Positions 5,463 through 48,964 of a stretch of DNA of 64,000 bases are shown in pieces. Origin of the DNA: Elusimicrobiota bacterium (GTDB lineage Bacteria; Elusimicrobiota; Elusimicrobia; UBA1565; UBA9628). The stretch covers positions 27,406-91,405 of the forward strand of contig JACRNU010000030.1 in assembly GCA_016234805.1 (NCBI GenBank), in the 5' to 3' direction. Position 1 is the first letter of the stretch. Each line of letters opens with the position of its first letter. The notes below the pieces were generated by a model, which was given only the letters and a program-made list of their open reading frames with translations, made no database searches and was not told the DNA's origin. Position numbers and translations under genes: made by a program.

Positions 5463-5500
5463 GCGAAACCTCTGTTACACTATTAGAAAGGCCGCGAGCC

Positions 5501-14612: not shown

Positions 14613-14619
14613 GCGCGGA

Positions 14620-15123
14620 TCAGAGGCGCTTCTCCATCGTGGACTCGTCTCCGGAACTCTCGACGACGTGAAAGCCCATCTCCCGATAGAGCGCGAGGGC
14701 TGCCCAAGCCCTGCGGTTCACCGACAGCGTTACGGCCTCGCCCTTCCGAGTCTTGACGTGGTCGAGGATCGCGGCGCAAAGGCTCCGGCCCAGGCCCTGG
14801 TGTCTGTAGAGCGGCTTGACCCAGACCCCGTCTATTCCCCATCGACCGCCGCCGAGCAGGGTGACGGTGGCCGTCCCGATGACCGTATCGCGCGTCAGCG
14901 CGACGAACCGGGCGCCTCCGGCGAGCTCGCCCTTGAGGCCTTCGGCGAATTCAGCTTGGGTCATCCCGGGCGCGCTGTTGAGGCGGCACAGCTCCGCGGC
15001 GTCGTCCATGGTGGCCGGCCTTACGACTGCGCGTTCCCGCAGCAGGAGCGTCCGTATGAGCCTGCGGCATCCCGATGCCTCCAGCAGGAACGATGCGACC
15101 CTGGTCGGCGGCCAAGGCGTCAC
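14620..15123 (-). CDS. GNAT family N-acetyltransferase.
   Basis: VWVKPLYRHQGLGRSLCAAILDHV is an acetyl-CoA binding motif (R/Q-x-x-G-x-G/A). Confidence 0.75.
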   Translation of the reverse strand: MTPWPPTRVASFLLEASGCRRLIRTLLLRERAVVRPATMDDAAELCRLNSAPGMTQAEFAEGLKGELAGGARFVALTRDTVIGTATVTLLGGGRWGIDGVWVKPLYRHQGLGRSLCAAILDHVKTRKGEAVTLSVNRRAWAALALYREMGFHVVESSGDESTMEKRL

Positions 15124-15150
15124 GGAAGTTCCCGGTCCTGAGCATGGCGG

Positions 15151-15834
15151 TCATCGGCTGCGCCAGACCAGCGTATCAAGCTCCTGGAGCTCAGCATCGA
15201 GCTCCAGCCAGGGCTGGCTGTCGAAAATGGAGCGCTGGCGCGCGCAGAAATAGGCCACCCGGATAATGCGCGGCTTGGCGATGAGCGACCGCCGGATGTT
15301 CTCCACGACCGCGCCGAAGGTCTTGGGCCCAAAAGGGTCGGAGAAGAAGAAGGCCGTGCCTTCCGACACATCGAACGATGCGGCATCGGCGCGGACGAAC
15401 TCCCCCCCCCCCCCCCTGAAGGTCCGCTTGTTCTCCATGGCGATCCGGAACAAGTCTTCGTTCAACTCGACTCCCACCGCCCTCTTCGGACGGAGCGTGG
15501 CTGCAAGAAAGACGGCCCTGCCCTGCCCGCATCCGAGGTCAATAAAGACGTCCTCTGGCCCCAGGGCGAGGAAGGCCAGGATTTTGTCCGCGGCGGCGTA
15601 GGAGATGGGATCGTACGGCTGCATGTCGCGGAATCCGCTCTCGTCGGCGTTGCGTCGCCACGGCAGGTTTGTCCTGATGCCGAGTCCCCGGTCGCGCCGA
15701 TGCTCCGCCACGACGACGGCGAAGTCCCGCGTCGTGTCCAGCAGATGCTGTCCCAGGCCCGATAGGAAGCGCCGGAAACTCTGCAAGAGCTTGAACGCCA
15801 GCGAATCCTTGACCCTCGCGCGGAGCGTCAGCAT
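15151..15834 (-). CDS. Class I SAM-dependent methyltransferase containing a 15-nt poly-C tract (GGGGG in the protein).
   Basis: VFIDLGCGQGRAVFLAA (motif I). The last gene of the minus-strand cluster; its start overlaps the upstream fusion gene by 7 nt. Confidence 0.65.
   Translation of the reverse strand: MLTLRARVKDSLAFKLLQSFRRFLSGLGQHLLDTTRDFAVVVAEHRRDRGLGIRTNLPWRRNADESGFRDMQPYDPISYAAADKILAFLALGPEDVFIDLGCGQGRAVFLAATLRPKRAVGVELNEDLFRIAMENKRTFRGGGGEFVRADAASFDVSEGTAFFFSDPFGPKTFGAVVENIRRSLIAKPRIIRVAYFCARQRSIFDSQPWLELDAELQELDTLVWRSR
15402..15416. repeat. Homopolymeric tract C15 (G15 on the coding strand) inside a methyltransferase CDS.
   Basis: Direct reading of gaactCCCCCCCCCCCCCCCtgaag; it encodes RGGGGEF. 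Confidence 0.8.
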
Positions 15835-18146
15835 GGGGCGCGAAGCTCCTTTTCCGGCGGCCGCCAGTCCGGGATGACGCCGATGCCGAAGCCCTTCTGA
15901 TCCCAGTCCTCCACGATCTCCTCGACGGGATGGGCGGCCTTGATCTCCCGCCAGAGCCTGGGTGATTCCTGGTCGCCGGTCGAGGGGTCGGGCACGATGT
16001 CGTGGAAGGCTATTATGCCTCCTTCCCGGACCAGGGGGGAGTAACGCTCAAAGTCGGATCTGACCGCGTCATAGGCGTGGTCGCCGTCGATGAAAAGGAA
16101 ATCCGCCTTCCTGCCGCCCAGCAGTTCCCGGACCCGTGCCAGGGTCCGGTCGCTCCCGGAGTCCGAGCGGACGAGCCTGATCGTCTGTCCCTTGAGCCCG
16201 ATCGAACGGTAGAGCGGGATCCTCGCGGCCGAGTATCCTTCGCCGCCTCCGAAGAAGGGCCCTGGGAGGTCCACGCTGACGAGGAGGGCGTCCTTTGCCG
16301 CGGCTCGGGAGAATAGGAACAGGGTCCCTCCGAGCTCGGTCCCGATCTCGACGATCACCTCGGGCTGGCGCGCCTTCAGGAGTTCGACGAGACGGATGAT
16401 CTCGCTCCTCACTTGAGCCGGCTGGAGGAGGCCCTCGAGTCCGTCGAAGGCGAGATCAGCCAGCCTGCCGGGGTCCCAGGTCAGGTCCGCGGCTTGGATG
16501 TCCCGCAGGTGAAGGGGGAGCTTGAGCAGGCGTTTGGCCGCGGCCGCGAGCCCGCCGGCGGAGCCGGGGCCGCGTTCGCGGACGACCCTGTCCCGCCAGC
16601 GACGTTCGAGTCGGTCGACGCCTTCCTCGCCGAGCAGGTCCGAGCTCTTGCTGCCGTAGTGGATGACCCAGACGTTGATGAGGGCGTAGAGCTTCCAGCC
16701 CAGGCGCTTCACGCGCTGGGTCAGGTCGATCCCTTCGTGACCGAGAAAGTATCTGCGGTCGAACTCCCCTGCCTCGGCCAGGGCGGACCGACGCGCCAGG
16801 AGGAACCCGCCTTCGAGATAGTCCACCTTGGCGAAGAAGAAGCCGTCCTTGAACCGGCCGCGCCAACGGGCGATGGTGTCGAGGATCCGATTCTCGCACC
16901 AGGAGTTGGGGAAGGCCTTGTTGGCGCGAAGGCAGAGGTCCCAAAGCACGCGCCGCCAGCCGGTCAGCACGACGCCGACCTCCCAGGCCTCATCCTTGTC
17001 CTCCGGCCGCTCGATCTCCCGGGGCATGGCGGCTCCCGCTTCGGGATGCTCCTCCATGAACCGCACGGACCTGGCCAGGGTGTCGGGCAGCATTTCCGTG
17101 TCCGGGTTGAGGAAAAGGACGAATTCTCCCCTGGCCAGGGCCACGGCCTGGTTGTGTCCGGAGCCGTAGCCCACGTTCTCTCGATTCTCGACTACTCGGA
17201 CTTCCGGGTATTTCTCCCGGACCATGGCGGCGGAGCCGTCGGAGGATGCGTTGTCCACCACGATGACCTCGAGGTCCAGGCCTCCCGCGTGCCGGAACAC
17301 GGAGGCGAGGCATTTGTCCAGGTAGTCCCTGACATTCCAGTTGACGATGGAGACCGTGAGCTTGAGGGCGGGACCGGCCTGGACCCTTGGGGCTGCAACC
17401 GGGATCCCCCGAAGAGTCCTCCCGAGGCGGAAGGCCAGCCGGTGGAGGGGATGAGGGATCGCGGACACCAGGAGCCCGAGGACGCGGTCCATGGGCTTGT
17501 CCAACGGAGTCCTGTCGCCCTTCCTGATCCGGGCCGCCACCCTGCCGAGGATCTCGGATTCCGTGACCTGGTCAAGGCCGTCCCCGCTGTCGGCTTTGAG
17601 GGTGAAGGTCCATCCGCCTTGGCCGGCCGAGGCGCCGACGATGCGGTGGGCGGCCATCCTGTCGTCCTTGGAGTAGAGGACGATGTCCCCTCTCCTGAGT
17701 CCGGCGGGCCCGGCCGGCCTGACTTCCAGCGTGTCGCCGTCCTTGATGATGGGGGACATGCTTGAGCCCCGCGCCTCGAGCCGGACCGAGGCGCCGCGTT
17801 CGAGCAGGGAGGCCGCGACCGAGGCCAGGTCAACGGCCCCGACGTTCAGGCCGTCCAGGCGGTTCTCAGCCACGCTCCCGCATCCTTTGTGTTCCGGAAG
17901 GAAAACTCCTGGACCGGGATCTCCCGGCAGAGCCTCGCGCACGATCCCAGAGCGGCCTCCATCAGCTTCTTGTCCCACCAGGGAGCGAAGGTGCAGCGCA
18001 GCAGGGCTGCCGCGGCCCCCGATGGGGACAGGGAGGCCAGGCCGTTGCTTTTTGCCTGCCGGAGGATGAAGAGCTTCTTGAGGGGGACGGCTCTGTTGGC
18101 CGCGAGCCGGTCCTCTCCGGGCCAAGGCGTGCCGCACAGCAGCCAT
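15828..18146 (-). CDS. Three-domain fusion protein: S24/S26 (LexA/signal-peptidase-like, Ser-His type) peptidase domain, a family-2 glycosyltransferase, and a class I SAM methyltransferase (TylF/cephalosporin-hydroxylase-like). True start probably internal.
   Basis: N-terminal: GSSMSPIIKDGDTLEV...RRGDIVLYS...AAHRIVG, an SPase I/LexA-like fold with His in place of the general-base Lys. Middle: KLTVSIVNWNVRDYLDKCLASVF...VIVVDNASSDGS...FLNPDTEM, a GT2 DXD-type domain. C-terminal: VIVEIGTELGGTLFLFS...FLFIDGDHAYDAVRSDFE...GGIIAFHDI, a methyltransferase. The first ~100 codons of the track ORF overlap the upstream kinase gene. Confidence 0.65.
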   Translation of the reverse strand: MAAVRHALARRGPARGQQSRPPQEALHPPAGKKQRPGLPVPIGGRGSPAALHLRSLVGQEADGGRSGIVREALPGDPGPGVFLPEHKGCGSVAENRLDGLNVGAVDLASVAASLLERGASVRLEARGSSMSPIIKDGDTLEVRPAGPAGLRRGDIVLYSKDDRMAAHRIVGASAGQGGWTFTLKADSGDGLDQVTESEILGRVAARIRKGDRTPLDKPMDRVLGLLVSAIPHPLHRLAFRLGRTLRGIPVAAPRVQAGPALKLTVSIVNWNVRDYLDKCLASVFRHAGGLDLEVIVVDNASSDGSAAMVREKYPEVRVVENRENVGYGSGHNQAVALARGEFVLFLNPDTEMLPDTLARSVRFMEEHPEAGAAMPREIERPEDKDEAWEVGVVLTGWRRVLWDLCLRANKAFPNSWCENRILDTIARWRGRFKDGFFFAKVDYLEGGFLLARRSALAEAGEFDRRYFLGHEGIDLTQRVKRLGWKLYALINVWVIHYGSKSSDLLGEEGVDRLERRWRDRVVRERGPGSAGGLAAAAKRLLKLPLHLRDIQAADLTWDPGRLADLAFDGLEGLLQPAQVRSEIIRLVELLKARQPEVIVEIGTELGGTLFLFSRAAAKDALLVSVDLPGPFFGGGEGYSAARIPLYRSIGLKGQTIRLVRSDSGSDRTLARVRELLGGRKADFLFIDGDHAYDAVRSDFERYSPLVREGGIIAFHDIVPDPSTGDQESPRLWREIKAAHPVEEIVEDWDQKGFGIGVIPDWRPPEKELRAPC

Positions 18147-18736
18147 CGCGAGCCGGACCTGCGCAGCACGATCCGGTCATCGCTCAACACCGGGATCTCC
18201 GGGCCGGACCCCCTCAGCAGGCGGGTCATGGTGGTCTTTCCTGCCCCGGAACTGCCGGCCAGGGCCACGCCCCCTTCCCCGACCGCGAGCCCGGCGGCGT
18301 GCAGGAGCAGGCCCGAGGACCCGAGGAGCGTCACGGTGAGCTGGCGGCTGATCAGGTCAAGGGTTTGGATGAGGGATGCTCCCGGAGCCTGACGCTGCAT
18401 GAGCAGGCGGTAGCGCCTGACCTTCCGGCCGTTCCGGATGCCCTTCCCTTCCGGGATCAGCACCCCGCAGGGCGGCTTGTTGCGCTGGGATGAGATGCGC
18501 AGGACCTCCTGTCCACGGCACGCGGTGACGCGCCAGAACACGGGGGTGTCGTAGACGACTCTGTCGCCGGCTCCGGCCTCGGCATGGCCCGGGGATATGG
18601 TCACGACCGCGTCCGGGTATTTATTCGTGACGAACTTGAGGTAGGCCGACATCCTGCTGTCGGTCCCGAGTTCGGGGATCCAGCGGCTCCGGAACTCCAC
18701 GACCGGACCCCCAAGTTCCAGCCTGAGGCTGGGCAC
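17846..18736 (-). CDS. HPr kinase/phosphorylase C-terminal-domain-like P-loop kinase (HprK-related).
   Basis: LLLHAAGLAVGEGGVALAGSSGAGKTTMTRLL is the Walker A region, in the arrangement seen in HprK C-terminal domains and in HprK-like kinases of RiPP clusters. Confidence 0.65.
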   Translation of the reverse strand: MPSLRLELGGPVVEFRSRWIPELGTDSRMSAYLKFVTNKYPDAVVTISPGHAEAGAGDRVVYDTPVFWRVTACRGQEVLRISSQRNKPPCGVLIPEGKGIRNGRKVRRYRLLMQRQAPGASLIQTLDLISRQLTVTLLGSSGLLLHAAGLAVGEGGVALAGSSGAGKTTMTRLLRGSGPEIPVLSDDRIVLRRSGSRWLLCGTPWPGEDRLAANRAVPLKKLFILRQAKSNGLASLSPSGAAAALLRCTFAPWWDKKLMEAALGSCARLCREIPVQEFSFRNTKDAGAWLRTAWTA

Positions 18737-18758
18737 TAGCCGCGCCCTTGTCCAAGCA

Positions 18759-18923
18759 CTAGCTTCTGCTGTAGGTGACGCGGCATCGGGAACACGCCCT
18801 GCCTGCGCAGCGCGAGGTGTTCGTGCTGCGCGCCGCGGACCTGCAGGCGGTGAGGATCTGCTCCTCGAGCGCGAGCTTGACCTGGACCATGGCGGGCTTC
18901 TGATACGGCTTCTTCTGGCTCAT
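18759..18923 (-). CDS. Candidate RiPP precursor peptide (54 aa): helical leader plus a Cys-rich, Ser/Arg-rich C-terminal core ending in Ser.
   Basis: Sequence MSQKKPYQKPAMVQVKLALEEQILTACRSAARSTNTSRCAGRACSRCRVTYSRS. The frame is taken from the tail of track ORF 18759..19277 and is too short to be called alone; my own reading of the raw text here differs by one base. An AGGAGA Shine-Dalgarno (18931-18936) sits 7 nt upstream of the ATG at 18923, which is 11 nt downstream of the radical SAM/SPASM stop. Confidence 0.5.
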   Translation of the reverse strand: MSQKKPYQKPAMVQVKLALEEQILTACRSAARSTNTSRCAGRACSRCRVTYSRS

Positions 18924-18934
18924 CTGCGGGTCTC

Positions 18935-20005
18935 CTATTGTTGCGTTTGTGCCGGTTCCTTGGAGCCGGCTTTCTTCCCGGCGAGGGCCTGGTGGCGCAG
19001 ACCGGCCTTGCGGCAAAGGGGTTCCACGATCCCTCCCAGGGACCGGTGCTCCAGCATGGCGTAGCCTGAGCACTGCTCGCAAAGAGGCGCTTTGTCGCAA
19101 GCAAGGCACTTTGGGGAAAGGCTTTCCTCCATCACGCGCCGGAAAAGGGGCATGGCTTCGCGCCACCCCGCTGAGAAGGAGCCCTTCCTGATGTCGTAGG
19201 CGAGGTTCGGGAAGGAATCGCAGGGCTGGAGCATGCCGTAGGGGTTGATGGTGAACACGATGGCGCCTGCCCCGCACAGGAGCAAGTCGCGGGCCGGGAC
19301 TTGGGAAAGCTCCCTGAGGAGTTCGCCGTATTCCTGCTTGGACTTCTCATCCGCGAGGTCCAGGGCCACGGTCTCCTCGGGGCTCAGCCGCAGTCCCCGG
19401 TTGTCGAAGCCTTCGTCGAGCCGGGGCACGAGGATGGTGTCGTAGGCGAGGCTGCGTCCCGGGTGCACGGCTTCGGCGGTGCCGCGCATGGCGGTCAGCT
19501 CGTGCTTGTTGAGGGACATCACCATGGTCTTGAGCGCGACATCCACTCCCCGCTCCTTCAATAGTCCGGCCGCGGCCAGGGAGCGGTCCAGGGAGCCCGG
19601 GCTGCGGGTGATCCGGTCATGGGTCGCGGCCGTGGCGCCGTAGATCGTGATCTCGACTCCGAGCGGCGGGTAATCGGCGAAGAGGTCCGCGAGCTCCGGG
19701 GTCAGGAGGGTGCCGTTGGTGAAGACCTCGATGAACATCCCTCGTCGGATCGCATGGAGGTAGATGTCCCGGAAGTCGGGCCGGAGCAGAGGCTCCCCGC
19801 CTGTCAGGAGAAGCCATAGGCAGCCGGCGTCCGCGACCTCGTCGAGGATGCGCCGGACCTCATCGAGGGAGAGCTCCTGGTCCCGCGCGGCGCGGTCTTC
19901 GGCCGGGATGCTGCAGTAGCAGTGGACGCAGTCCTGGTTGCAGCGGTAGGTCAGGGCCAGGGAGCCGAGATAGGGCAGCCGCAGGGACATGGCCTTCTCA
20001 TCCAT
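18935..20005 (-). CDS. Radical SAM/SPASM domain peptide-modifying enzyme.
   Basis: LTYRCNQDCVHCY is a CxxxCxxC radical SAM motif; the C-terminal SPASM-type Cys cluster is CLACDKAPLCEQCSGYA. Start placed at an internal Met (MDEK); the track ORF extends to 20056 and overlaps the PqqD gene. Confidence 0.75.
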   Translation of the reverse strand: MDEKAMSLRLPYLGSLALTYRCNQDCVHCYCSIPAEDRAARDQELSLDEVRRILDEVADAGCLWLLLTGGEPLLRPDFRDIYLHAIRRGMFIEVFTNGTLLTPELADLFADYPPLGVEITIYGATAATHDRITRSPGSLDRSLAAAGLLKERGVDVALKTMVMSLNKHELTAMRGTAEAVHPGRSLAYDTILVPRLDEGFDNRGLRLSPEETVALDLADEKSKQEYGELLRELSQVPARDLLLCGAGAIVFTINPYGMLQPCDSFPNLAYDIRKGSFSAGWREAMPLFRRVMEESLSPKCLACDKAPLCEQCSGYAMLEHRSLGGIVEPLCRKAGLRHQALAGKKAGSKEPAQTQQ

Positions 20006-20042
20006 GACGCGGCGGAACTCGCCGAACCCGGCTTGGGGGATC

Positions 20043-20330
20043 TTAGCGCAGGGCATGGCTCTTCACCAGGTCCTTGGCGGCGAGGGCTCTCAGGAAATCC
20101 AGGGTGTCTTCCTCGGCGATCTGAGCAGCCACCTCGAAGCGCTCGCGGATGAGCTCCGCCGCCTGCGCCGCCGTACGGCGCCCATCCAGGGCGTCCCAGA
20201 GGAGGGCGCCGGTCTCGTTGAGCCGCCAGACCACGGCCTCATCCTGGTCCACGAGCACGGCCTCGTCTTCGATGAGCTTGAAGAGGATGTCCGGGTTGCG
20301 GACGGGCCGGTCCTGAAGAGAGAGCTTCAT
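20043..20330 (-). CDS. PqqD-family protein (RiPP recognition element-like peptide chaperone), copy 1.
   Basis: 95 aa: ...FKLIEDEAVLVDQDEAVVWRLNETGALLWDALDGRRTAAQAAELIRERF..., a PqqD fold signature. 4-nt overlap with the upstream B12-rSAM gene. Confidence 0.8.
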   Translation of the reverse strand: MKLSLQDRPVRNPDILFKLIEDEAVLVDQDEAVVWRLNETGALLWDALDGRRTAAQAAELIRERFEVAAQIAEEDTLDFLRALAAKDLVKSHALR

Positions 20331-23197
20331 CGGGACACCATGGCGTCAAGGGCGGTGGCCGCGGCTCGGTAGAGCTCCCGGCCGGCCTTGCCGTAGCGGC
20401 GCTCGGCAAGGAGCCCGCGTCCCAGCCGCCAGTGCAGGTCGGCTGAGTCGAGCCCCAGGCGCCTGGCTTTCCTGAAGTGGGAGAGGGCTTCGCCGGCTTT
20501 CCCCTGCCGCTCGGCGATGAGCCCCAGTTGGAAGAATGCGCCTGCTGAATCAGGGGAGAGGTCCAGGACCGCGCGGAAATGAGAGGCCGCTTCCTCCGGA
20601 GAACCTCCGGAGGCGAGCAGCACGGCTCCCAACCCGAAATGAGCGTCCTCGATCGCGGGGGAAAGCTCCAGGGCCTTCCTGAACAGGCGTTCGGCTTCGG
20701 TCCAGTCTTTACGTGCGCGGTTCACGTTGCCAAGGCCGCAGAGCGCGAGGGCGTTAGCCGGGTCGAGCTTCAAGGCGTCCTTGTACGCTTTCTCGGCTCC
20801 GGCCCGATCATCCATGAACTCCAGGACCGGTCCTGGGTTGTTGTAGGCGGTCCTGTAGGACGGGTCGAGACCGACCGCCTTGCGATAGGAGAGCCTGGCC
20901 GAATCGATTTCTCCCTTCTCGAGGCCCGCAAGGGCCGCGAGGTAATGCCGGGCGGCGGGCGGCACGGACCAATCCGAGGACTGAAGGCGGGCCTTGAGCT
21001 CGTCTCCCAGGTGCTTGAACCGCAGGGGGGTGAAGCCGCCCTCCACGGAATACGAGATGGTCGTGCATTCCGGTTTGAGGCCCAGTCCGGCAAGCCGCTG
21101 GGAAAGGCGCTCCGGAGCGATCCAGGGCTCGCGGTCCGGAGCGAGGTCGTCCGTGACTTTCCTGGTCAGCAGGTAATCCAGATCGATGTCGAGCAGGACC
21201 GGGCCCGGGAACTTGGGCAGGCCGGCCAGTTCGCAGACGATGGTCTTCCTGCCCGCGAGTTCCGTGACCAGCAGGTCTCCTTGCGCGCGCACGAGCGTTC
21301 GCGGCCGGGCAAGCCTCTTGAGCGTGCGAAGGACGTGCCTGCGCTCCTTATGGCTGGACAGGGTCCCGTCCGGCACCACCCAGTAGAACTCGGACACGAT
21401 CCCATCCTGCATGGCAGGACAAACGAAATTGCCGATGGTGACCAGGCGCTCCTTCGGGGTCTCGACCGGATTCCACAGGGGCCGGCTCGCGAGCAGGCTG
21501 TCCAATTCGGCCTTGGTGCCGGCTTCGAGGATCTGGGTGATGTCCTTCTCCGGGACCCAGCCGAAATCGATGTGCGCGTCGAGGTGGATGAGGGGCAGTC
21601 CCGAGAGCCCGAGCTTGCGCCATACCCCGAGGACCTCGTTGTGGTCTTCCACGAGATGGGTGGACCTCCGGTGCATCAGGCCTTTGCAGAGCTGTTCCAG
21701 CCGGCCGGCCTCCATGGGGCTCATCGGGCCTCTTGCCTGGCGGAACTCGGTGAAGAACTTGAACGGCAGGCCTCCGTCCCTGTCGAATTCCAGCCCCCAC
21801 CGTGCCGGGTCGTCGTAGACTGGGCACTTGGGCGTCAGATAGTACGTGTTGAAGGCGGGATGGTCGATGGAGGCGCGGTTCTCGGAGATGAAAGCCACGG
21901 TCTCCAACCCTTCCTCGACGGTCTCTCCCGGCAGACCGAAGATGGTCTGGAGGCCCACCGCGACTCCGGCTGCGTGACAGTCCCTGATGACCCTTTCCGA
22001 GACCGCCTGCTTGTTCCCTTTGAGCACGAGGCCGCAGACCCTGTCCGAGGCGGACTCGAAACCGAAATTGACCTGCTTGCAGCCCGCTTCCCTGGCCAGG
22101 TCGAAGATGTCCCGGGTGAAGCCGTTGTCGAGCCTGGCCATGGTCCACCAGGGCACGGCGAAATCCTCCTGGATGAGCCTCGTCGAGACCTCGCGCATCT
22201 GGCTCGGGGACATGGTGGCGTTGGAGACCAGCAGGAGCGCCGGCTTGTGGCGTTCCGCAAGGGCCTTGAAGTCCCTCGCCACCAGGTCCGGCGATTTGGC
22301 CCGGTAGGACGGCTTGGGCAGGGGCAGGTCCACGCAGTAGGCGCAGCGGTTCCAGTAGCAGCCCCGGGAGGTCTCGCAGGTCAGGGCAAGGCCTCCTTGC
22401 CTGCTGCTTGCGTAGCTCGCGAGCGGAAGTCCTTCGAAGTCGGGAGTGGGCAGGAGGTCGAGGTCCTCCTCGCTGGTGACGGGGCTGCGGATCCAGGCGC
22501 CGTTGGCATGGCGGATCAGGTTGGGCACGGTCGAGACAGGACCCCGGGACTCGAGCGCCGAGACCAGGCCCAGGAGGGGGGTCTCGCCCTCGCCGGTCAC
22601 GACGAAGTCGAAGAGCGCCGCCCAATCAGGGCGGGCCATGATCTCCTCCGCGAAGAGGGTTGCCCATTGGCCGCCGAGGGCGATCTTCACCTCAGGGGAC
22701 CGCCGCTTGAGCAGGCGGCAAAGCGTCAGGCCGGCCAAGGCTTGGGAAGGGGAGACGATCGAAAGGCCGATGAGCGATGGCGTGCCTGAGAGGATTCCCT
22801 TGGCCCCCGGGTCGGCCAGGAAGAACCGCAGGAATGTGTTCTCGTCCTCATCGTCCAGATACCTGAAAAGGATGCCGCTGGAAAGGATCCGTTCGATGAA
22901 GTAGAAGGAGGAATTGGTCCTGTTGTCGTACGGGCTGCCGTATTGGTAGTCTCCGGCGTTCTGCGGCAGGAGGGATGAGTAGTAGAGCCCTTGGGCCTTC
23001 CCGTCAAAGAGCTCGTTCATCCGCCGCCGCGCCGTGTCCGCGGAACCGTCCCAGGAGTCCCGGTAGGCGAGGTTGAGGTCGAGCTGCGAGACGCCGATCC
23101 CCCTGGACTTCAGGAAGCCGGCCAGGGCCGGCGTTCCCAGCGGCGGGGCGTCGTATTCGTAGTCGGGAGGGATGACAAGGCGGACTTCCGGCATCAA
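20327..23197 (-). CDS. B12-binding radical SAM protein with a C-terminal TPR repeat domain (956 aa).
   Basis: N-terminal B12-binding region (IGLSIVSPSQALAGLTLCRLLKRRSPEVKIALGG). Radical SAM core with a CETSRGCYWNRCAYC cysteine motif. C-terminal ~250 aa with TPR-like repeats (AYNNPGPVLEFMDDRAGAEKAYKDALKLDP..., HFGLGAVLLASGG...). Confidence 0.75.
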   Translation of the reverse strand: MMPEVRLVIPPDYEYDAPPLGTPALAGFLKSRGIGVSQLDLNLAYRDSWDGSADTARRRMNELFDGKAQGLYYSSLLPQNAGDYQYGSPYDNRTNSSFYFIERILSSGILFRYLDDEDENTFLRFFLADPGAKGILSGTPSLIGLSIVSPSQALAGLTLCRLLKRRSPEVKIALGGQWATLFAEEIMARPDWAALFDFVVTGEGETPLLGLVSALESRGPVSTVPNLIRHANGAWIRSPVTSEEDLDLLPTPDFEGLPLASYASSRQGGLALTCETSRGCYWNRCAYCVDLPLPKPSYRAKSPDLVARDFKALAERHKPALLLVSNATMSPSQMREVSTRLIQEDFAVPWWTMARLDNGFTRDIFDLAREAGCKQVNFGFESASDRVCGLVLKGNKQAVSERVIRDCHAAGVAVGLQTIFGLPGETVEEGLETVAFISENRASIDHPAFNTYYLTPKCPVYDDPARWGLEFDRDGGLPFKFFTEFRQARGPMSPMEAGRLEQLCKGLMHRRSTHLVEDHNEVLGVWRKLGLSGLPLIHLDAHIDFGWVPEKDITQILEAGTKAELDSLLASRPLWNPVETPKERLVTIGNFVCPAMQDGIVSEFYWVVPDGTLSSHKERRHVLRTLKRLARPRTLVRAQGDLLVTELAGRKTIVCELAGLPKFPGPVLLDIDLDYLLTRKVTDDLAPDREPWIAPERLSQRLAGLGLKPECTTISYSVEGGFTPLRFKHLGDELKARLQSSDWSVPPAARHYLAALAGLEKGEIDSARLSYRKAVGLDPSYRTAYNNPGPVLEFMDDRAGAEKAYKDALKLDPANALALCGLGNVNRARKDWTEAERLFRKALELSPAIEDAHFGLGAVLLASGGSPEEAASHFRAVLDLSPDSAGAFFQLGLIAERQGKAGEALSHFRKARRLGLDSADLHWRLGRGLLAERRYGKAGRELYRAAATALDAMVSR

Positions 23198-23484
23198 TTA
23201 GCGTGCACGCTTTTTATGGTCTCGAACTGCGTCAGGATGGTCCCAAGATCCGCCTCGACCTCGGTGCCGGTCGTCGCGTACTCCTCCAGCAGGGTCGTCT
23301 TGATCTGCCCCACGGTGCGCTGTCCGTCGATGAGTTCCCAGACCCGGGCCGCGGTGTCGTTCAAGGTGAAGATGCTCCTCAGGTCGCCCACCTTCTCCCG
23401 GATGGGGACGAGGATGTACTCATCCGCGATGCGGCGGCCCACGAAGTCGGGGTTCTTGCTGTAGCGGCGTTCCAATAGTTGCAT
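23194..23484 (-). CDS. PqqD-family protein, copy 2.
   Basis: MQLLERRYSKNPDFVGRRIADEYILVPI...LNDTAARVWELIDGQRTVGQIKTTLLEEYA is a PqqD-like fold. The ATG at 23484 has a GAGGGAG RBS. 4-nt overlap with the downstream B12-rSAM start. Confidence 0.65.
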   Translation of the reverse strand: MQLLERRYSKNPDFVGRRIADEYILVPIREKVGDLRSIFTLNDTAARVWELIDGQRTVGQIKTTLLEEYATTGTEVEADLGTILTQFETIKSVHAN

Positions 23485-23514
23485 AGGGGATTCTCCCTCG
23501 GGGAGCGGCAGGAT

Positions 23515-23531
23515 GTGATTATACATAATGC
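23515..23531 (-). promoter_or_regulatory. Candidate sigma70-type -10 element (TATAAT) about 30 nt upstream of the PqqD copy-2 start.
   Basis: The minus strand reads GCATTATGTATAATCAC. This is an isolated AT-rich patch in GC-rich DNA, immediately upstream of the first gene of the tightly overlapped minus-strand gene string. Confidence 0.25.
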
Positions 23532-23558
23532 GGGAAAGCCGCGGTCCGCGGGCGGGGT

Positions 23559-24779
23559 TCAAAGAGCTGGCGCGATGGCTTCGGCCAAGGCCCGGTAGCC
23601 GGCGGCGTTGAGATGAGGCGCGTCGTAGACGCCGTGGATGAACCTCCTGCGAGCCTCGGCGCGCAGGGAGGGCCTCGCGTCCACGAACCCGCAGCCGGCC
23701 CTCAGGGCGGCCTCGCGCGCCCTTGCGGCGATGAGGTCGCTGCGGCGGCGCACCGCGGCCGCCGGGTAGCGGGACGCCCTGTCGTGATAGGTCTCCACGG
23801 AGACCTCTGGAGAGGCGAGCTCGTAGCACGACAGGGGCGAGGGGATGTAGACCGCCAGGACCCTGGCCCCGGGGAAACGGGACCTCAGGAACCCCAGAGA
23901 TTGCTCGAGGACCCAGACGCCCCGGCGCAGCTCGTCGTCCGTGAGCTCGAGGGACGGGCCTTGCGACGCCTCGGGCAGGAAGGACTCGGTCTGGCCGAGC
24001 AGGACGCGGTTCACGGGCTCGGCGGCGGGGACCTCGGCCGCCTCCGAGGTCCGTCCGTCAGCGGCCCCGGGCAGCCTGCGCCAGGCGCTGCGCAGCAGGG
24101 TCATGCCGAACCTCCAGAAGACCAGGTTCCTGCCGAATCCGCCTCGCAGGGCCGCCCTGGAGCCGTCATGGCGTTCCACGAACTCCGCCAGCATGAAGCG
24201 CCTGAAATAGGAAGGGTCGTAGAGCCTGCCTTGGTCGTAACGCGGGTCGTAGCTCTCCCGGAGATCGGTGATGTTGTCGTCGAGTTCGTTGCCCTCGTAG
24301 AAGTAGGCGAGCACGACCCCGGGCTCGGCGAGCCTGTAGAACAGGGTGCGGCCGAGGAAGGCGAACGTGCCGGCCGGCTCGGCCGCGAGCCCACCCATGC
24401 TGCCCGCGCCTCCGTAGCCCATGGAGACGACGTCGCGGCCGGTCAGCGCGCGGAGATGAGCCTGGGAGCCGAAGGCCGCCCTGGTCCAGCGGGAGGCGTT
24501 GCGGGCCTCGTCGCCGAGGCCCACGGCGTAGGAGTCCCCCAGGATGAGCACGTAGTCCCTGGGCCTCAGGCCGCGCTTGGTGCTTTGGCACAGGACCTGG
24601 ACGGGCGCGTCCAGCCGCCACGCCAGGCCGTGGGGCAGGAACGCGACCGCGGCCGGGAAGAGGGCGAACTCGACGGCGGCGTAGAGCAGCAGGAGCGCGG
24701 CCAGGGAGAGCCCAGCCTTCGGGGCGAGGGCCTTGAACCGGGCGGGGAGGGTTGCCATGACCGCGGGCTTATCATACAT
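23559..24779 (-). CDS. SGNH/GDSL-type hydrolase with an N-terminal membrane anchor.
   Basis: N-terminal hydrophobic segment (LSLAALLLLYAAVEFALFPAAVAFL), a GDS block (VLILGDSYAVGLGD), and a C-terminal DAPHLN (DxxH) block. The start is uncertain (Met at 24779 or 24758). Confidence 0.55.
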   Translation of the reverse strand: MYDKPAVMATLPARFKALAPKAGLSLAALLLLYAAVEFALFPAAVAFLPHGLAWRLDAPVQVLCQSTKRGLRPRDYVLILGDSYAVGLGDEARNASRWTRAAFGSQAHLRALTGRDVVSMGYGGAGSMGGLAAEPAGTFAFLGRTLFYRLAEPGVVLAYFYEGNELDDNITDLRESYDPRYDQGRLYDPSYFRRFMLAEFVERHDGSRAALRGGFGRNLVFWRFGMTLLRSAWRRLPGAADGRTSEAAEVPAAEPVNRVLLGQTESFLPEASQGPSLELTDDELRRGVWVLEQSLGFLRSRFPGARVLAVYIPSPLSCYELASPEVSVETYHDRASRYPAAAVRRRSDLIAARAREAALRAGCGFVDARPSLRAEARRRFIHGVYDAPHLNAAGYRALAEAIAPAL

Positions 24780-24845
24780 GATATCACGCGGACGGAGCAT
24801 CCCCGTCCCGGCCGCCTTCCGTGAAATGGTATCGTTGGGTCCGGC

Positions 24846-26705
24846 ATGGTCATCCCGGTGAAGGACCAGAAGCCCCAAGGGCTCCTCTCCGCCGCGGCTG
24901 CGGCAGCCGGCCTGCTGGCCTTCGCCGCGGCCTATAACGCGTTCTGGGGCCTGCGCTCGATCAACTCCTACATGGCAGCTCCGGTCATCGACGCCGGCTA
25001 CCGCGTCTTCCTGGGCCAGACGCCTCTGGCCGATTTCTTCTCGCCCTATGCTCTGGTCCTGGCCTGGCTGCAGGGCCTCTTCTTCAAGTGGTTCGGGGCA
25101 AGCTACGCGGCGTACCTCACCCTGGGATGCGCCATGAACGCTGCTGCCGCGGGCCTGGTCTTCTGGTCGGTCTGGAGCGAGGAGCGGGATGTCGGGCTTG
25201 CCGCGGCCGGGGGGCTCGTGACCGCCGCGTGGCTCATGCCCATCTCTGGGGGCGGCCCCGTGCACAACTCCGGCGCCTTCTTTTTCGTGCTCGCCGCCGC
25301 GGTGTGCCTCTGGACCCCGTCGCGCGGTCTGTCGCCCTGGCGGACCTTGCTGGCCGGCGCGGCCCTGGCCATGGCCTTTCTCACCAAGCAGAACGTCGGC
25401 GCTTTCGCGGCCTTTTTCCTCGCCCTCTATGTCCTGGCCGCAGGCTCCCCGGCCGACCTGGGCCGCCTGGGAGCCGGGATCGGCCTAGGGCTGGCGGTCC
25501 TGGCCTTGGCGATCGGCCCGTCAGCGTGGGGTGATGCCTGGCATTTTGTCGTGGCCTTGCCGGCCGGCGAGAGGCTCTGGGGCAGGTTCTTGGGCTCCAA
25601 GCCCGCGGGCTGGCTCGCCTTGGCCGGCTTGGGCCTGGCGGTCCTGCTGCGCAAGGGCGAGCGGCCGCTGCTCGCGTGCGCCGCGATCCTGTTCCTCGCG
25701 CACCTGCTCGGCGGCCAGGACTTCAGGCCCGGGGTCTCCGTCCACATGTTCCTGCCCTTGGCTGCCCTGCCTCTCATGGTCCGCCGGGAGGACCGGGCCA
25801 TGCTCCTCGCCCTGGTCCTCGTCGGATATTCCTCCGCGGTGAGCGCGAGCGCCGCCATGGAGCATTCCATGCCCCTCGTCGGCGTTGAGGCCGTGCTGGT
25901 TTGCCTGGCCTGGAAGCGGGGGCGCTCGGACCCGGCAGGGCAAGGCCTGGTCCGGGCCTTGGCCGGCAACGGGTTCCTGGCCGGCGATGCGCCGGTCTGG
26001 GCCGGGATGGGCCTGCTCATCCTGCTGGGCGTCCGCCAGGCGGCCATGCATCGCTGGGGCGTTCTCGCATCGGTCCCTGTCGTGGGCCCTCTTGTCGGGC
26101 TTGCAATCGCGTGGGCTGGTTGGAGGCTGTGGCGAGGCAGGGGCTCCTGCGAAGAGCCGGGCAGGGCCAGGGTCGGAGGGGTCGGACTCGCTCTTGTCCT
26201 TGTCGGAGCTGGTTGGGCAGGGCGGCAATGCTTATCTGCCCTAGGCTCAAGGGGCGCCGGCCAGTCCGTTCCCTTGGGGGAGGGAGAGGCCAGGGACCTC
26301 CGGATACCGTTCTTCCAGGGGCTGGACATGCCCCAGGCTGAGGCACGCGGGATCGCGAAGCCCCTGGATTATCTCGCTGGCCTGCCTCCTGAATCAAGGC
26401 CCTTTTTCGTCTACCAGTCAGGGACAGGGTCGATGCTCTACGCCGCTCTCGGCCAGGCTCCGCCGCAGCCGTTCGTCATGTTCGACCGGGGCTTCACGCA
26501 CGGCGGCCTTGGGGACTACGAGAAGGTCTGTTCAGCGTTGAAGGCCGCGGACATCCGCGCCGCGGGGTTCGACGATAGCGGAGAAGACCTCCTCAACGAA
26601 CCGGGCCTGGAGTGTCTCAGGCGCTGGCTTGAGACCGATTTCTTCAAGGACAAGGAGAGCGGAGGCTGGGTGTTCTACCGGCGGAGGCCGGTCCGCCGGG
26701 AGTAG
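24846..26705 (+). CDS. Polytopic membrane protein, probably a GT-C fold glycosyltransferase (ArnT/PMT-like); paralog 1.
   Basis: More than 10 predicted TM helices with a soluble C-terminal domain. Shares conserved N-terminal (YRVFLGQ.PLADFFSPY) and C-terminal (W.FYRRR) blocks with the two downstream paralogs. Confidence 0.5.
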   Translation: MVIPVKDQKPQGLLSAAAAAAGLLAFAAAYNAFWGLRSINSYMAAPVIDAGYRVFLGQTPLADFFSPYALVLAWLQGLFFKWFGASYAAYLTLGCAMNAAAAGLVFWSVWSEERDVGLAAAGGLVTAAWLMPISGGGPVHNSGAFFFVLAAAVCLWTPSRGLSPWRTLLAGAALAMAFLTKQNVGAFAAFFLALYVLAAGSPADLGRLGAGIGLGLAVLALAIGPSAWGDAWHFVVALPAGERLWGRFLGSKPAGWLALAGLGLAVLLRKGERPLLACAAILFLAHLLGGQDFRPGVSVHMFLPLAALPLMVRREDRAMLLALVLVGYSSAVSASAAMEHSMPLVGVEAVLVCLAWKRGRSDPAGQGLVRALAGNGFLAGDAPVWAGMGLLILLGVRQAAMHRWGVLASVPVVGPLVGLAIAWAGWRLWRGRGSCEEPGRARVGGVGLALVLVGAGWAGRQCLSALGSRGAGQSVPLGEGEARDLRIPFFQGLDMPQAEARGIAKPLDYLAGLPPESRPFFVYQSGTGSMLYAALGQAPPQPFVMFDRGFTHGGLGDYEKVCSALKAADIRAAGFDDSGEDLLNEPGLECLRRWLETDFFKDKESGGWVFYRRRPVRRE

Positions 26706-28426
26706 AAGACCCATTCATCGATCGTCCGGTCATCGACGAAGCCTTCCCTGAGCCAGCGCTTCATGCACTCCGGCCCCGTTCCGTACCCCGGGCCTGGAAC
26801 CCCTCCGTACGCTCCCACGGTCCGGACATCGGCCCGCTCCAGCGCGCTGCAGAGAAGCGCCTCGTCTTCGGGGCCCTGGTAGGTGAGCCCTGGGTCGGCT
26901 CCGATGAACGGTTGTGGAGGGGCCTGTCCCAAGGCGGCGTAGAAGACGGTTTCGGACACCTCGTTATAGAGGAAGAACGGCCGCTTGTTTTCGGGAAGAG
27001 CGGCAAGATATAGGTAGAGCCGGTCCATGGACTGGGCTTCAGCCAAAGGAAGTCTGAGACCATTGAAGAACGGGGCTGCCAGGGTCGAGGTCCTGACCGG
27101 GCCGCCGGAGCCGGCCGCCGGGGCCGGCTCGCGGCGCAGGGCGAGAGTGGAGGAGATTCCCTGCCAGAGCAGGGCAAGGCCCGCCACGACAACCGCGATG
27201 CCCAGGGTCGAGGACTGCTGCCGCCGTTCCCCGAAAAAGCGCCGGCCGGCCCACAGCCTAGCTCCGGCCCACGAAGCGGCCAGGCCGACGACAGGCGCCG
27301 CCACGGGGATGGTCCAGAGCGCGTTCCAGCGAGTCATGGCGATGTAACGCAGTCCCATGCCGCAGAGGAAGACGCAGCCTCCCCAGACCGGCAGGCTCGC
27401 GGCCCGGGCGGCGTTGCCGGCCAGGGCCCGCGTCCAGGGCTCGGAGCCGGGCGACGCGGACCAACGCTTCCAGGCCCTGCACATGAGGAGGTGCTGGAGG
27501 CCGAGGAGCGGCAGGTTTTGGCTCAGCGGACTGCCGGAGAAAGCCGCGGCAAAAAAACCCGTGAGGGTCGCGGCCAGCAGGAAGATACGGTCCGCGGTCG
27601 TGGCAAGGAAGGGCGCGGCAGCCAAAGGCAGAAGGCTGAATGGGGACAGTCCCTCCAGGATGCCGCGCGCGGCCATGGCTGTGAAAATGCGGTCGGATAA
27701 TCCGTGCGCGGGAAGGACAACAAGGTGGCGCCACGCTCCCAGCCATCCTTCCGGCCCTAGGGCGAAAGCAAGGAGCGCCAGTCCGGCGAGGAATCCGCAG
27801 GCAAGGATGCCCGCGCTGCGCCCTGCCCTGCAGGCGGAGAACAGGCCGAGGAAGACCGCCGCGAAAAGCCCGACCGGCTGTTTGATGGAGAAAGCCCAGG
27901 CCAGAGCCGCTCCCGCGGCAAGAGTCCGAATGGTTCCGGTTTCCGATGGGGGGTGGTCGGCGTCGAGCAGCAGGCAGAAGGCCGCGACAACGAGGAAATA
28001 CGCGGAGGAGTTGTAGGTGGGGCCGCCCAAGGCGACAGGCATGAGCCATGTCGCTGTGATGGCAGAGGCTGTTCCTGCCAGGGCAAGATCGCGGTCAGAG
28101 CGCCAGACCGCCCAAAACACGGCGATCGCGGCAGCGGCGTTGAGGACGCATCCCAAGCCGACATACGCGGCGTAGCTGACGCCGAACAGCTTGAAGAACG
28201 CCGCCAGCGCCCAAGATGGAGCGGGTCCGATAGGGCAATGGAAATCCTGGAAAGCCTTCTGCCCCAGATAGACGCGCCAGCCGCCGTCGATGATGATGGA
28301 GGCCTGATCATAACCGAAAAAATGGAAGCCGCAGTACCTGTTGAGGAGAAACGCGAAGGCCGCGACCGCGGCAGCCGCGACCGCGACCGTCAAAGGCGAT
28401 GTCTTTGGTCCGGAGTTCAGGGGCAT
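26675..28426 (-). CDS. Polytopic membrane protein, GT-C-like; paralog 2, convergent with paralog 1 and overlapping it by 31 nt.
   Basis: MPLNSGPKTSPLTVAVAAAAVAAFAFLLNRYCGFHFFGYDQASIIIDGGWRVYLGQKAFQDF... aligns with paralog 1. Start placed at an internal Met. Confidence 0.5.
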   Translation of the reverse strand: MPLNSGPKTSPLTVAVAAAAVAAFAFLLNRYCGFHFFGYDQASIIIDGGWRVYLGQKAFQDFHCPIGPAPSWALAAFFKLFGVSYAAYVGLGCVLNAAAAIAVFWAVWRSDRDLALAGTASAITATWLMPVALGGPTYNSSAYFLVVAAFCLLLDADHPPSETGTIRTLAAGAALAWAFSIKQPVGLFAAVFLGLFSACRAGRSAGILACGFLAGLALLAFALGPEGWLGAWRHLVVLPAHGLSDRIFTAMAARGILEGLSPFSLLPLAAAPFLATTADRIFLLAATLTGFFAAAFSGSPLSQNLPLLGLQHLLMCRAWKRWSASPGSEPWTRALAGNAARAASLPVWGGCVFLCGMGLRYIAMTRWNALWTIPVAAPVVGLAASWAGARLWAGRRFFGERRQQSSTLGIAVVVAGLALLWQGISSTLALRREPAPAAGSGGPVRTSTLAAPFFNGLRLPLAEAQSMDRLYLYLAALPENKRPFFLYNEVSETVFYAALGQAPPQPFIGADPGLTYQGPEDEALLCSALERADVRTVGAYGGVPGPGYGTGPECMKRWLREGFVDDRTIDEWVFYSRRTGLRR

Positions 28427-29097: not shown

Positions 29098-29128
29098 GCA
29101 GAGCGCAATGCTATCATATCCTCATCCC

Positions 29129-31183: not shown

Positions 31184-31296
31184 GTCTGGTGATATTGTAC
31201 AATAATCTCCACGGGGCACCACTAGGGGACGGCCGTGATTTTCCGTAACATCCCCGTCATTGACTTCATTTCTGTTCCGGTTATACTCTTAATCCC

Positions 31297-32687: not shown

Positions 32688-32696
32688 CGGAGCCCC

Positions 32697-44667: not shown

Positions 44668-45900
<1,233 letters not shown>

Positions 45901-46023
45901 TTGGTTGTTGTCTCCATGCGACCGGCTACGGGCGAATGCTGACGACCTCCGCTTCGTAGACGGTAATATGATTGCAGATTATACAATTTTTGGGGCGGCC
46001 TGGGGGGCGCTCCGCGCGAGCCC

Positions 46024-47795: not shown

Positions 47796-47811
47796 GGATG
47801 GCTTCTAGGCA

Positions 47812-48924: not shown

Positions 48925-48964
48925 GGTCCGTGATTCTACAAAAATTAATATACTTATGCCTTAG

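Follow-up and report, generated by a model that had tools for sequence, protein, structure and literature searches.

The analyzed window, a stretch of 64,000 nucleotides from an Elusimicrobiota bacterium (assembly GCA_016234805.1, contig JACRNU010000030.1, positions 27,406 to 91,405), contains a minus-strand operon that probably serves the biosynthesis of a peptide that is made on ribosomes and modified after translation (RiPP). The operon would represent an undescribed but widespread family, the radical S-adenosylmethionine (radical SAM) relative of the linear polyphosphorylated peptide (LPP) and phospho-lasso peptide systems. Judged by analogy with known enzymes, its likely product is a thioether-bridged, ornithine-containing and C-terminally phospho(glyco)sylated peptide.

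Organization of the operon

Ten co-directional genes were found on the minus strand between positions 14620 and 24800. The labels that an initial annotation, made from the letters of the DNA alone, had given them agreed with the Pfam/NCBIfam profile matches listed here, together with those of three neighboring loci.

14620-15123, minus strand: GNAT acetyl/acyltransferase (PF00583, E = 1.3e-13)
15151-15834, minus strand: SAM-dependent methyltransferase, DOT1/protein-lysine N-methyltransferase-like (Methyltransf_25-like; PF08123, 7e-7; NF041081, 1.8e-6)
15828-17873, minus strand: fusion of an S24/S26-like peptidase, a family 2 glycosyltransferase (GT2) and Methyltransf_24 (PF00717, 1e-4; PF00535, 8e-25; PF13578, 1.5e-14)
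17846-18736, minus strand: ScmC-family P-loop protein with HprK/PEPCK fold, HZB91_04655 (TIGR04355, 6.5e-9)
18759-18923, minus strand: precursor peptide of 54 aa, hypothetical protein HZB91_04660 (conserved family of small open reading frames)
18935-20056, minus strand: radical SAM/SPASM enzyme (PF04055, 3e-24)
20043-20330, minus strand: PqqD-family RiPP recognition element (RRE) paired with the radical SAM/SPASM enzyme (PF05402, 6e-17)
20327-23197, minus strand: B12-binding radical SAM enzyme with peptide arginase and tetratricopeptide repeat (TPR) parts, 956 aa (PF02310, 2.6e-10; PF04055, 4e-12)
23194-23484, minus strand: second PqqD-family RRE, paired with the B12-radical SAM/arginase enzyme (PF05402, 1e-12)
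23559-24800, minus strand: SGNH/GDSL hydrolase-like protein, membrane-anchored at its N-terminus and encoded by the operon's first gene (PF13472, 3e-10)
13064-14612, plus strand: ABC-2 exporter, convergent with the operon, with the ATPase at 13064-13816 and the permease at about 13809-14612 (PF00005, 2e-26; PF01061, 2e-12)
about 29090-30025, plus strand: NTP_transf_5 nucleotidyltransferase-fold protein with a GDLDILV motif (PF14907, 2e-27)
31986-34529, plus strand: Wza-like polysaccharide export protein and Wzc-like chain-length/tyrosine kinase protein (TIGR03027, 2e-37; TIGR01005, 8e-44)

The genes and strand of the ten-gene cluster, originally drawn over 14620-25265, were confirmed, as were its gene overlaps (4, 4, 14 and 7 nt, within the 4-14 nt reported), whereas its upstream end was moved to about 24800. 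Inspection of start codons placed the beginning of the SGNH gene most likely at ATG 24800 and not at 25265; moreover, a genuine gene for a membrane protein starts divergently at 24846, so that the operon would end near 24800 rather than 25265. The same kind of inspection reduced the peptidase-GT2-methyltransferase fusion from an open reading frame of 772 aa to about 681 aa, with its start at GTG 17873, and the second PqqD gene starts at ATG 23484 with the Shine-Dalgarno site GAGGGAG. In this window of 66% G+C many open reading frames are spurious; one of them (25427-26329, minus strand) was discarded, being of low complexity and antisense to the membrane-protein gene at 24846-26705. A scan of positions 14300-25300 for promoters and terminators gave nothing above shuffled expectation, and no Rfam family was matched in the whole window.

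The ABC-2 exporter, the NTP_transf_5 gene and the polysaccharide context had been overlooked when the cluster was first delimited. By their sequence similarity, the Wza-like and Wzc-like neighbors place the cluster in an exopolysaccharide locus.

Precursor peptide and conserved module

The 54-aa open reading frame on the minus strand at 18759-18923 (MSQKKPYQKPAMVQVKLALEEQILTACRSAARSTNTSRCAGRACSRCRVTYSRS) had been proposed in the initial annotation as a Cys-rich substrate candidate, and this proposal was upheld, although only three of its four Cys proved to be conserved. An AGGAG Shine-Dalgarno site lies 8 nt upstream, and differences from the copy in a second Elusimicrobia metagenome-assembled genome (locus L003) number 8, 10 and 20 at codon positions 1, 2 and 3, respectively. 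In a metagenome-assembled genome of Omnitrophota, a 65%-identical peptide follows the orthologous radical SAM gene. On these sequence grounds the open reading frame is a real, conserved gene. The RRE-binding motif [Y/W]xxPx[L/V/I] appears in its leader as YQKPAM, and its core is rich in Arg (seven residues) and ends in Ser (Ser54).

In order to evaluate conservation, contexts of distant homologues of the radical SAM enzyme were combined with 80 loci from a scan of species-representative genomes, and the presence of domains was scored by local jackhmmer profiles built from the window proteins. Loci containing the radical SAM gene and a ScmC-like gene were taken as related (n = 41), other radical SAM/SPASM loci of the same scan served as controls (n = 44), and precursor peptides were sought among six-frame open reading frames with a hidden Markov model of the peptide (E < 1e-3). 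A peptide match was found in 28 of the 41 related loci, in 27 of the 28 directly after the radical SAM/SPASM gene. The gene set thus does co-occur with a small Cys-containing open reading frame, the consistent lack of which had been named beforehand as evidence against a RiPP-type system. PqqD proteins were present in 38/41 related loci vs. 2/44 controls, S24-like domains in 29/41 vs. 1/44, and NTP_transf_5 in 14/41 vs. 1/44; Poly_export adjoined the module in 5/41 loci (L002, L003, L005, L010, L015) vs. 0/44. The usual gene order (PqqD, radical SAM/SPASM, peptide, ScmC-like, S24-like) recurs in at least 10 phyla, the hosts including Elusimicrobia, Omnitrophota, Thermodesulfobacteriota and other delta-proteobacterial lineages, Chloroflexi/Anaerolineae, Nitrospirota, Planctomycetia, Acidobacteriota, Aminicenantes, Fermentibacteria, Actinomycetota and Clostridia. 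The recurrence of the same order in many phyla indicates that the cluster is more than a chance arrangement.

The family peptides share the leader consensus K-[KR]-x-[YW]-x-K-P-x-[LVI]-x-x-[VIL]-x-L-x-x-E-E-x-[VL]-L-x-x-C-[KR], with the [Y/W]xxP motif in 29/29, followed by a core of about 24-28 residues that is variable in sequence. Exactly three core Cys occur in 22/32 peptides, 28/32 terminate in Ser and 2/32 in Thr, and good conservation is confined to the leader, the C[K/R] pair and this terminal residue. A scan of six family peptides against NCBIfam at E ≤ 10 matched no relevant family. Two precursor genes each were present in L015 and L032. Leader cleavage would fall near the junction of EEQ and ILTAC if counted from the Tyr as in LPPs, a cut directly before the conserved Cys being equally possible. 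The combination expected of a RiPP system, that is, a precursor gene with conserved leader and variable core beside modifying enzymes, together with PqqD-like RREs (the two PF05402 proteins), was found, and the RiPP-type reading of the initial annotation is supported.

A sub-type of the module with three radical SAM/SPASM genes, one of them fused to a ScmC-like domain, was observed in L024, L027, L028, L032 and L048; the peptides of this sub-type contain more Cys, and their leaders are of the Trp type (WxKPELxVL). Large Peptidase_C25 (gingipain-type) proteins adjoin the module in three unrelated loci (L006, 1-8678; L007, 10538-13531; L088, 10692-12896).

Enzymes predicted to modify the peptide

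In the radical SAM/SPASM enzyme the CxxxCxxC motif corresponds to the invariant residues C39, C43 and C46, and seven further Cys (C261, C279, C317, C320, C326, C329 and C348) are invariant in the C-terminal part. Their spacing (C261...GMLQPC279, 17 residues with Gx4C; C317x2C320x5C326x2C329; C348) reproduces the SPASM arrangement (CxxxCxxC plus Cx9-15Gx4C / Cx2Cx5Cx3C / C); the Pfam SPASM model gave no report for this protein at E ≤ 0.01. The nearest solved structures, BlsE, SkfB and PqqE, are all distant. By analogy the enzyme is predicted to cross-link core Cys residues. Its partner RRE (20043-20330) had as best NCBIfam match the lasso peptide PqqD chaperone NF033530 (44 bits, cut-off 70) and is 33% identical to the second PqqD protein, whose pairing with the B12-radical SAM/arginase enzyme was also observed in L002, L003 and L005.

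The 956-aa enzyme had been described as a B12-binding radical SAM protein with a TPR tail. Both of these parts are present, and a peptide arginase domain between them had been missed: residues 1 to about 500 form a class-B radical SAM part, about 500-745 the arginase and about 745-956 the TPR region. The B12-binding (PF02310, 40.6 bits, gathering threshold (GA) 32.1) and radical SAM (PF04055, 46.9 bits, GA 29.5) matches exceed their thresholds, and the best subfamily was TIGR03975, a RiPP C-methyltransferase (3e-34, 118 bits, cut-off 282); the B12-radical SAM part is probably a C-methyltransferase.

The arginase-like stretch retrieved OspR only marginally in a single-sequence search of the PDB (E = 0.037), yet a six-sequence profile of the domain (A2) had OspR (8brp) as its sole PDB match, over the full length (E = 1.5e-18). 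The motifs described for pfam12640 are EEH(N/H)EAF, DxHxD and LDIDLDYFSC (PMC12703449), and their counterparts in the window protein are EDHNEVL, HLDAHID and LLDIDLDYLL. All six residues that bind Mn in OspR (H12, D39, H41, D43, D165 and D167; PMC10028609) are invariant in the A2 alignment as H6, D27, H29, D31, D157 and D159, as is D161. The arginase-TPR protein is encoded by a separate gene beside the B12-radical SAM gene in L002, L005 and L009, and is fused to it in two Elusimicrobia loci. Peptides accompanied by the arginase domain had a mean of 5.5 core Arg, in six loci of which several are related and which are not phylogenetically independent, vs. 0.65 in the 26 peptides without it (Mann-Whitney p = 6e-5), the domain being present only beside Arg-rich cores. 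In four of the six arginase loci (window, L002, L003 and L009) the otherwise conserved Cys-Lys pair with which the core begins was replaced by Cys-Arg; the Arg of this pair could be converted to ornithine, a Lys analogue.

The P-loop protein scored 35 bits against TIGR04355 (HprK_rel_B, cut-off 200) and 22 bits against ScmC (cut-off 125), and a precomputed match to the Pfam family ScmC (PF27840) is on record. It carries the Walker A motif GSSGAGKTT followed by LSDDRIVL, that is, the HprK-type pair GxSGxGK[ST] ... [S/N]DD, which is kept in the window protein and its closest relatives. All 34 significant Foldseek matches of its AF2 model (pLDDT 75) in the PDB were PEPCK or HprK/P, whereas a single-sequence search of the PDB returned generic Walker A matches only. 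From this modeled fold, the protein is predicted to be a peptide Ser kinase. The analogy with phospho-lasso clusters drawn in the initial annotation is in line with these data, namely the HprK/PEPCK fold, the intact Walker A and SDD motifs and the predominance of terminal Ser. The paired Asp of SDD corresponds to the Asp pair at the metal site of the lasso peptide kinase PsmK, which loses its activity when that pair is mutated (PMC6993621). Relatives of the P-loop protein are numerous: a word-indexed search found seven and an exhaustive profile search thousands, with 2,146 representative clusters in public data at E ≤ 1e-30 and 11,382 at E ≤ 1e-10. We know of no experimental work on the Pfam ScmC family.

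Peptidase fusions and probable exporter

[quoted passage not shown] The nucleophile motif GSSMSP is followed about 40 residues on by HRIV; among homologues, GxSMxP occurs in 30/32 and HR[VIL] in 22/32. This domain is fused to GT2 and methyltransferase in the window, to GT2 in L003, to methyltransferase in L005, to GNAT and NTP_transf_5 in L002 and L008, to NTP_transf_5 in L010 and to GNAT in L012 and L048, and these different fusions tie the tailoring enzymes to the peptide. The DOT1-like methyltransferase was also found in L003. No homologue of the SGNH protein was detected by jackhmmer in related loci, and neither it nor the DOT1-like methyltransferase nor Methyltransf_24 was conserved in those loci outside Elusimicrobia.

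A convergent ABC-2 pair also follows the module in L002, L003, L005 and L008 and is the probable exporter of the product. A pair of M16 (insulinase-type) peptidases at 7434-10609 on the plus strand was considered as leader peptidase and rejected, being absent from all related loci.

Relationship to known systems

The LPPs, encoded by lppA/K/B/S/D/N (Popov et al., Nat Commun 2026, PMC13381572), come closest. Their clusters sit in capsular-polysaccharide loci, rich in glycosyltransferases, of Bacillota, to which the authors consider LPPs and paeninodins restricted; the leader has the form YxxPxVLxHQxIxFETxxS, polyphosphorylation by the kinase takes place at core Ser3, the peptidase is RRE-dependent, and the NTP transferase (LppN) is listed in the supplement as NTP_transf_5 (PMC13381572). 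The cluster reported here has four of the five LPP core parts, detected with the same or closely related models (RRE, HprK-like kinase, a putative SpI-like peptidase and NTP_transf_5); the half of the leader that binds the RRE, of YxxPx[L/V/I/M] type, and the placement in a polysaccharide locus are likewise shared. The combination of RRE, HprK-like kinase and NTP_transf_5 that marks LPP clusters is thus present, with a kinase of a different subfamily. The claim that such a combination had not been described consequently held only in part: RRE, HprK-like kinase, SpI-like peptidase and NTP_transf_5 in polysaccharide loci are the LPP system (PMC13381572), while the radical SAM version was not found in open-access papers or bioRxiv.

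There are also differences from LPPs. A radical SAM/SPASM gene lies beside the precursor here, whereas LPP clusters are without radical SAM genes and their products are thought to be linear; the text of the LPP paper makes no mention of radical SAM, and its co-occurrence table, as stored, has no Radical_SAM entry (PMC13381572). The exporter is MsbA-like in LPP clusters and of ABC-2 type here, the VLxHQxIxFETxxS segment is absent and replaced by ...VKLxxEExVLxxC[K/R], and the kinase belongs to the ScmC subfamily (PF27840), without a PF07475 match. Finally, the radical SAM family spans at least 10 phyla, in contrast to the Bacillota-restricted distribution described for LPPs.

Phospho-lasso peptides provide the second comparison. 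The HprK-family kinases PadeK (paeninodin) and PsmK (pseudomycoidin) phosphorylate the C-terminal Ser of the lasso precursor, and the NTP-transferase-fold protein PsmN is required for adding hexoses onto the C-terminal phosphate (Zyubko et al., PMC6993621). Shared with these systems are a candidate HprK-family kinase, an NTP-transferase-fold protein, a PqqD/B1-type RRE, a YxxPxL-type leader and a C-terminal Ser. Neither a lasso cyclase (asparagine-synthetase homologue) nor a B2 transglutaminase-type protease was found among the scanned open reading frames of the window; in their place, cross-linking would presumably be carried out by the radical SAM/SPASM enzyme and leader removal by the SpI-like peptidase. 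The cluster is best described as a relative, with radical SAM, of LPP and phospho-lasso systems with an added B12-radical SAM/peptide-arginase module.

The nearest concept from comparative genomics is SynChlorMet, because Pfam names the P-loop family ScmC. SynChlorMet and GeoRSP likewise combine radical SAM/SPASM enzymes, a PqqD-family protein and a ScmC/HprK-related P-loop protein, yet the window cluster has one SPASM enzyme rather than two. SynChlorMet cut-offs were not reached in the window (ScmC 22/125, ScmD 36/100, ScmE 70/400 and ScmF 74/400 bits), nor in relatives with three radical SAM genes such as L024. The resemblance to GeoRSP noted in the initial annotation did not amount to membership (TIGR04303, 74 vs. 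400 bits; TIGR04302, 25 vs. 100 bits). Assignment to GeoRSP, SynChlorMet, PQQ or mycofactocin was rejected, all curated cut-offs having been missed widely. To our knowledge, SynChlorMet and GeoRSP, both NCBIfam/TIGRFAM families from comparative genomics, have not been characterized experimentally; a search of open-access papers and bioRxiv for ScmC and SynChlorMet returned unrelated acronyms only and zero occurrences of SynChlorMet.

With sactipeptide and ranthipeptide systems (AlbA, SkfB, PapB, SCIFF) the cluster shares a radical SAM/SPASM enzyme with the seven-Cys motif, an RRE and a short multi-Cys precursor, but the scores are low (StsB, 85 vs. 625 bits; AlbA, 59 vs. 850 bits), and the kinase, NTP_transf_5 and SpI-like peptidase are foreign to those classes. 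The arginase part resembles the peptide arginases OspR (landornamide), FlmR and OhkR in its full-length profile match, motifs, Mn ligands and Arg-rich core, the difference being its fusion to B12-radical SAM and TPR, or to TPR alone (L002, L005 and L009). The precursor falls outside the types listed in PMC12703449 (NHLP, N11P, SCIFF, SCCRRSCN, DD(I/V)LF and MGxRRSSE). In enteropeptin biosynthesis (KgrA-D, PMC12703449) a radical SAM enzyme acts at a Cys next to Arg, followed by Arg-to-Orn conversion and then methylation, a sequence to which the Cys-Lys/Arg pair, the arginase and the lysine-methyltransferase-like enzyme offer a parallel by analogy only; KgrD is a pfam00491 arginase and not a pfam12640 one.

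Proposed pathway and alternative explanations

According to the preferred interpretation, the 54-aa precursor would be held through its YQKPAM leader on the PqqD-type RREs, as the observed motif and RRE homology suggest, and the radical SAM/SPASM enzyme would cross-link the three core Cys that are conserved, thioethers being the likeliest form. The second RRE would bring the peptide to the B12-radical SAM/arginase/TPR enzyme, in which the arginase, with its active-site residues intact, may turn part of the seven core Arg residues into ornithine while the B12-radical SAM part may carry out C-methylation. The ScmC/HprK-fold kinase would phosphorylate a Ser, most probably the near-invariant C-terminal Ser54, by analogy with PadeK and PsmK. 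Further tailoring of the phosphate or the peptide, with sugar, methyl or acyl groups being added and trimmed, could then be the task of NTP_transf_5, the GT2-methyltransferase, the GNAT protein and the second methyltransferase. The SpI-like domain would cut off the leader in an RRE-dependent manner, as LppS does, and the ABC-2 transporter would export the product.

Several observations weigh against this interpretation. All scores of the radical SAM enzyme against curated NCBIfam families lie far below the cut-offs, and its nearest solved relatives catalyze different reactions, the thioether being only the commonest precedent. With the window sequence alone, PF12640 gave 3.6e-4 and 21 bits (GA 27), and the correlation between Arg content and arginase suffers from the relatedness of its loci. 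PF07475 did not match the P-loop protein, which scored only 35 bits on HprK_rel_B, and the substrate of the candidate kinase could be something else. In two Anaerolineales loci (L014 and L018) the peptides lack a terminal Ser/Thr though a ScmC-like gene is present, and the kinases of these loci have GED where SDD is expected. In addition, the phosphosite of LPPs is core Ser3, whereas here the C-terminal Ser is conserved and no conserved Ser occupies the equivalent position. The NTP_transf_5 gene lies 4 kb from the operon on the opposite strand, and the products of the GT2, methyltransferase, GNAT and SGNH genes could act in the neighboring polysaccharide pathway and not on the peptide.

This last point leads to the alternative that fares best, although we regard it as unlikely, namely that only the RRE, the radical SAM/SPASM enzyme, the peptide, the kinase and the peptidase act together, and that the GT2-methyltransferase, second methyltransferase, GNAT, SGNH, ABC-2 and NTP_transf_5 genes belong to an exopolysaccharide pathway. 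The setting of the cluster amid Wza/Wzc-like, GT-C-like and sugar-nucleotide genes is in its favor, and so is the poor conservation of the SGNH, DOT1-like and Methyltransf_24 parts across related loci. ABC-2 transporters and CmcI-type methyltransferases are moreover typical of polysaccharide pathways. Nevertheless, the S24-like domain is physically fused to GT2, GNAT, NTP_transf_5 or methyltransferase across phyla, NTP_transf_5 is enriched beside the module when related loci are compared with controls, and PsmN is needed for the hexose of a phosphopeptide.

A cofactor pathway similar to those of mycofactocin or PQQ, in which a small molecule, redox-active or other, is cut from the peptide scaffold (from its C-terminal residues or the conserved Cys-Lys/Arg pair, for instance) and then glycosylated and methylated, is very unlikely. 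The mycofactocin pathway follows a parallel logic of RRE, radical SAM/SPASM enzyme, peptidase, GT2 and methyltransferase; MftC was the second-best NCBIfam match of the radical SAM enzyme (108 bits, nearly full length) and MftF the best of the GT2 domain (54 bits), and the restriction of strong conservation to leader, C[K/R] pair and last residue would suit such a scaffold. However, all matches to these pathways, membership of which had been named from the start as a reason to give up the RiPP-type reading, fell below their cut-offs (MftC 108/265, MftF 54/280, PqqE 76/381 and PqqD 25/46 bits), and the peptide has neither PqqA nor MftA core motifs. Core length and the positions of the three Cys are kept while the sequence varies, as for a cross-linked peptide, and a tailoring set of kinase, NTP_transf_5 and SpI-like peptidase belongs to peptide products (LPP and phospho-lasso) rather than to cofactors. 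It is highly improbable that the ScmC-like protein is instead an ATP-dependent scaffold or chaperone, or a kinase of sugar or lipid intermediates, with the C-terminal Ser kept for another reason such as recognition by the radical SAM enzyme or the exporter. In favor of this reading, the protein resembles HprK models only weakly and only around its P-loop, sequence searches of the PDB gave generic P-loops, the top structural match, PEPCK, is a small-molecule kinase, and the Walker A expression was unmatched in 21/46 ScmC-like proteins (all in related loci, none in the window). Against it, the HprK-type motif pair is kept in the window protein and its closest relatives, and the same partners (RRE, SpI-like peptidase and NTP_transf_5) accompany proven peptide Ser kinases in LPP and lasso systems.

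Other features of the window

Between the operon and the NTP_transf_5 gene lie three paralogous hydrophobic proteins (24846-26705, plus strand; 26675-28516 and 28417-29097, minus strand), for which no Pfam/NCBIfam match was obtained; they are apparently polytopic membrane proteins and from their context could be GT-C-like or polymerase-like. The protein encoded at 30044-31222 (minus strand), itself without a Pfam match, is a jackhmmer homologue of proteins beside the module in L002, L003, L005, L022 and L033, and its homologues in L002 and L005 have HD/HD_5 (HD-GYP-like) Pfam matches, which hints at a regulatory link, possibly via cyclic di-GMP. Genes at 44668-51142 encode a SAM synthetase, a phosphomannomutase, a sugar-1-phosphate nucleotidyltransferase and a PMT_2 (GT-C) glycosyltransferase, and could supply SAM and activated sugars.

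Farther from the operon, residues 128-196 of a 244-aa protein (5369-6103, plus strand) match the HNH region of Cas9d/IscB far below the cut-offs (NF049971, 7e-12; NF040563, 8e-11), and the protein may be a stand-alone HNH endonuclease by its sequence. A 1365-aa open reading frame at 36799-40896 (minus strand) has a strong coding signal (G+C at third codon positions, GC3, 0.90) and no Pfam match. At 40985-42368 (minus strand), an AbiEii-type nucleotidyltransferase toxin gene (PF08843, 7e-19) overlaps a 205-aa open reading frame on the same strand, suggesting a type IV toxin-antitoxin pair.

Implications

If the preferred interpretation is correct, three RiPP families would draw on one tailoring kit, consisting of a lasso-type RRE, an HprK-fold kinase and NTP_transf_5, with a SpI-like leader peptidase in two of the three, and would differ in the class-defining step: a lasso cyclase, nothing in the case of LPPs, or a radical SAM/SPASM enzyme. 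The radical SAM version is not rare, occurring in many uncultured anaerobic phyla, in contrast to the Bacillota-restricted LPPs and paeninodins. The family would provide testable substrates for an uncharacterized SPASM clade, for the Pfam ScmC family and for a natural B12-radical SAM/arginase/TPR fusion.

The position in an exopolysaccharide locus, as for LPPs, points to a role in the cell envelope or in biofilms, and the family bears on why capsule or exopolysaccharide loci should encode such peptides at all. As a speculative extension, possible although rather doubtful, the modified peptide might be a ribosomal primer or anchor of a glycan, with NTP_transf_5 and the peptidase-fused GT2 glycosylating its C-terminal phosphoserine, before extension, methylation, acetylation and export by ABC-2/Wza. 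The capsule or exopolysaccharide would then include a peptide-linked part, which would explain why the LPP, phospho-lasso and radical SAM families are sited in polysaccharide loci.

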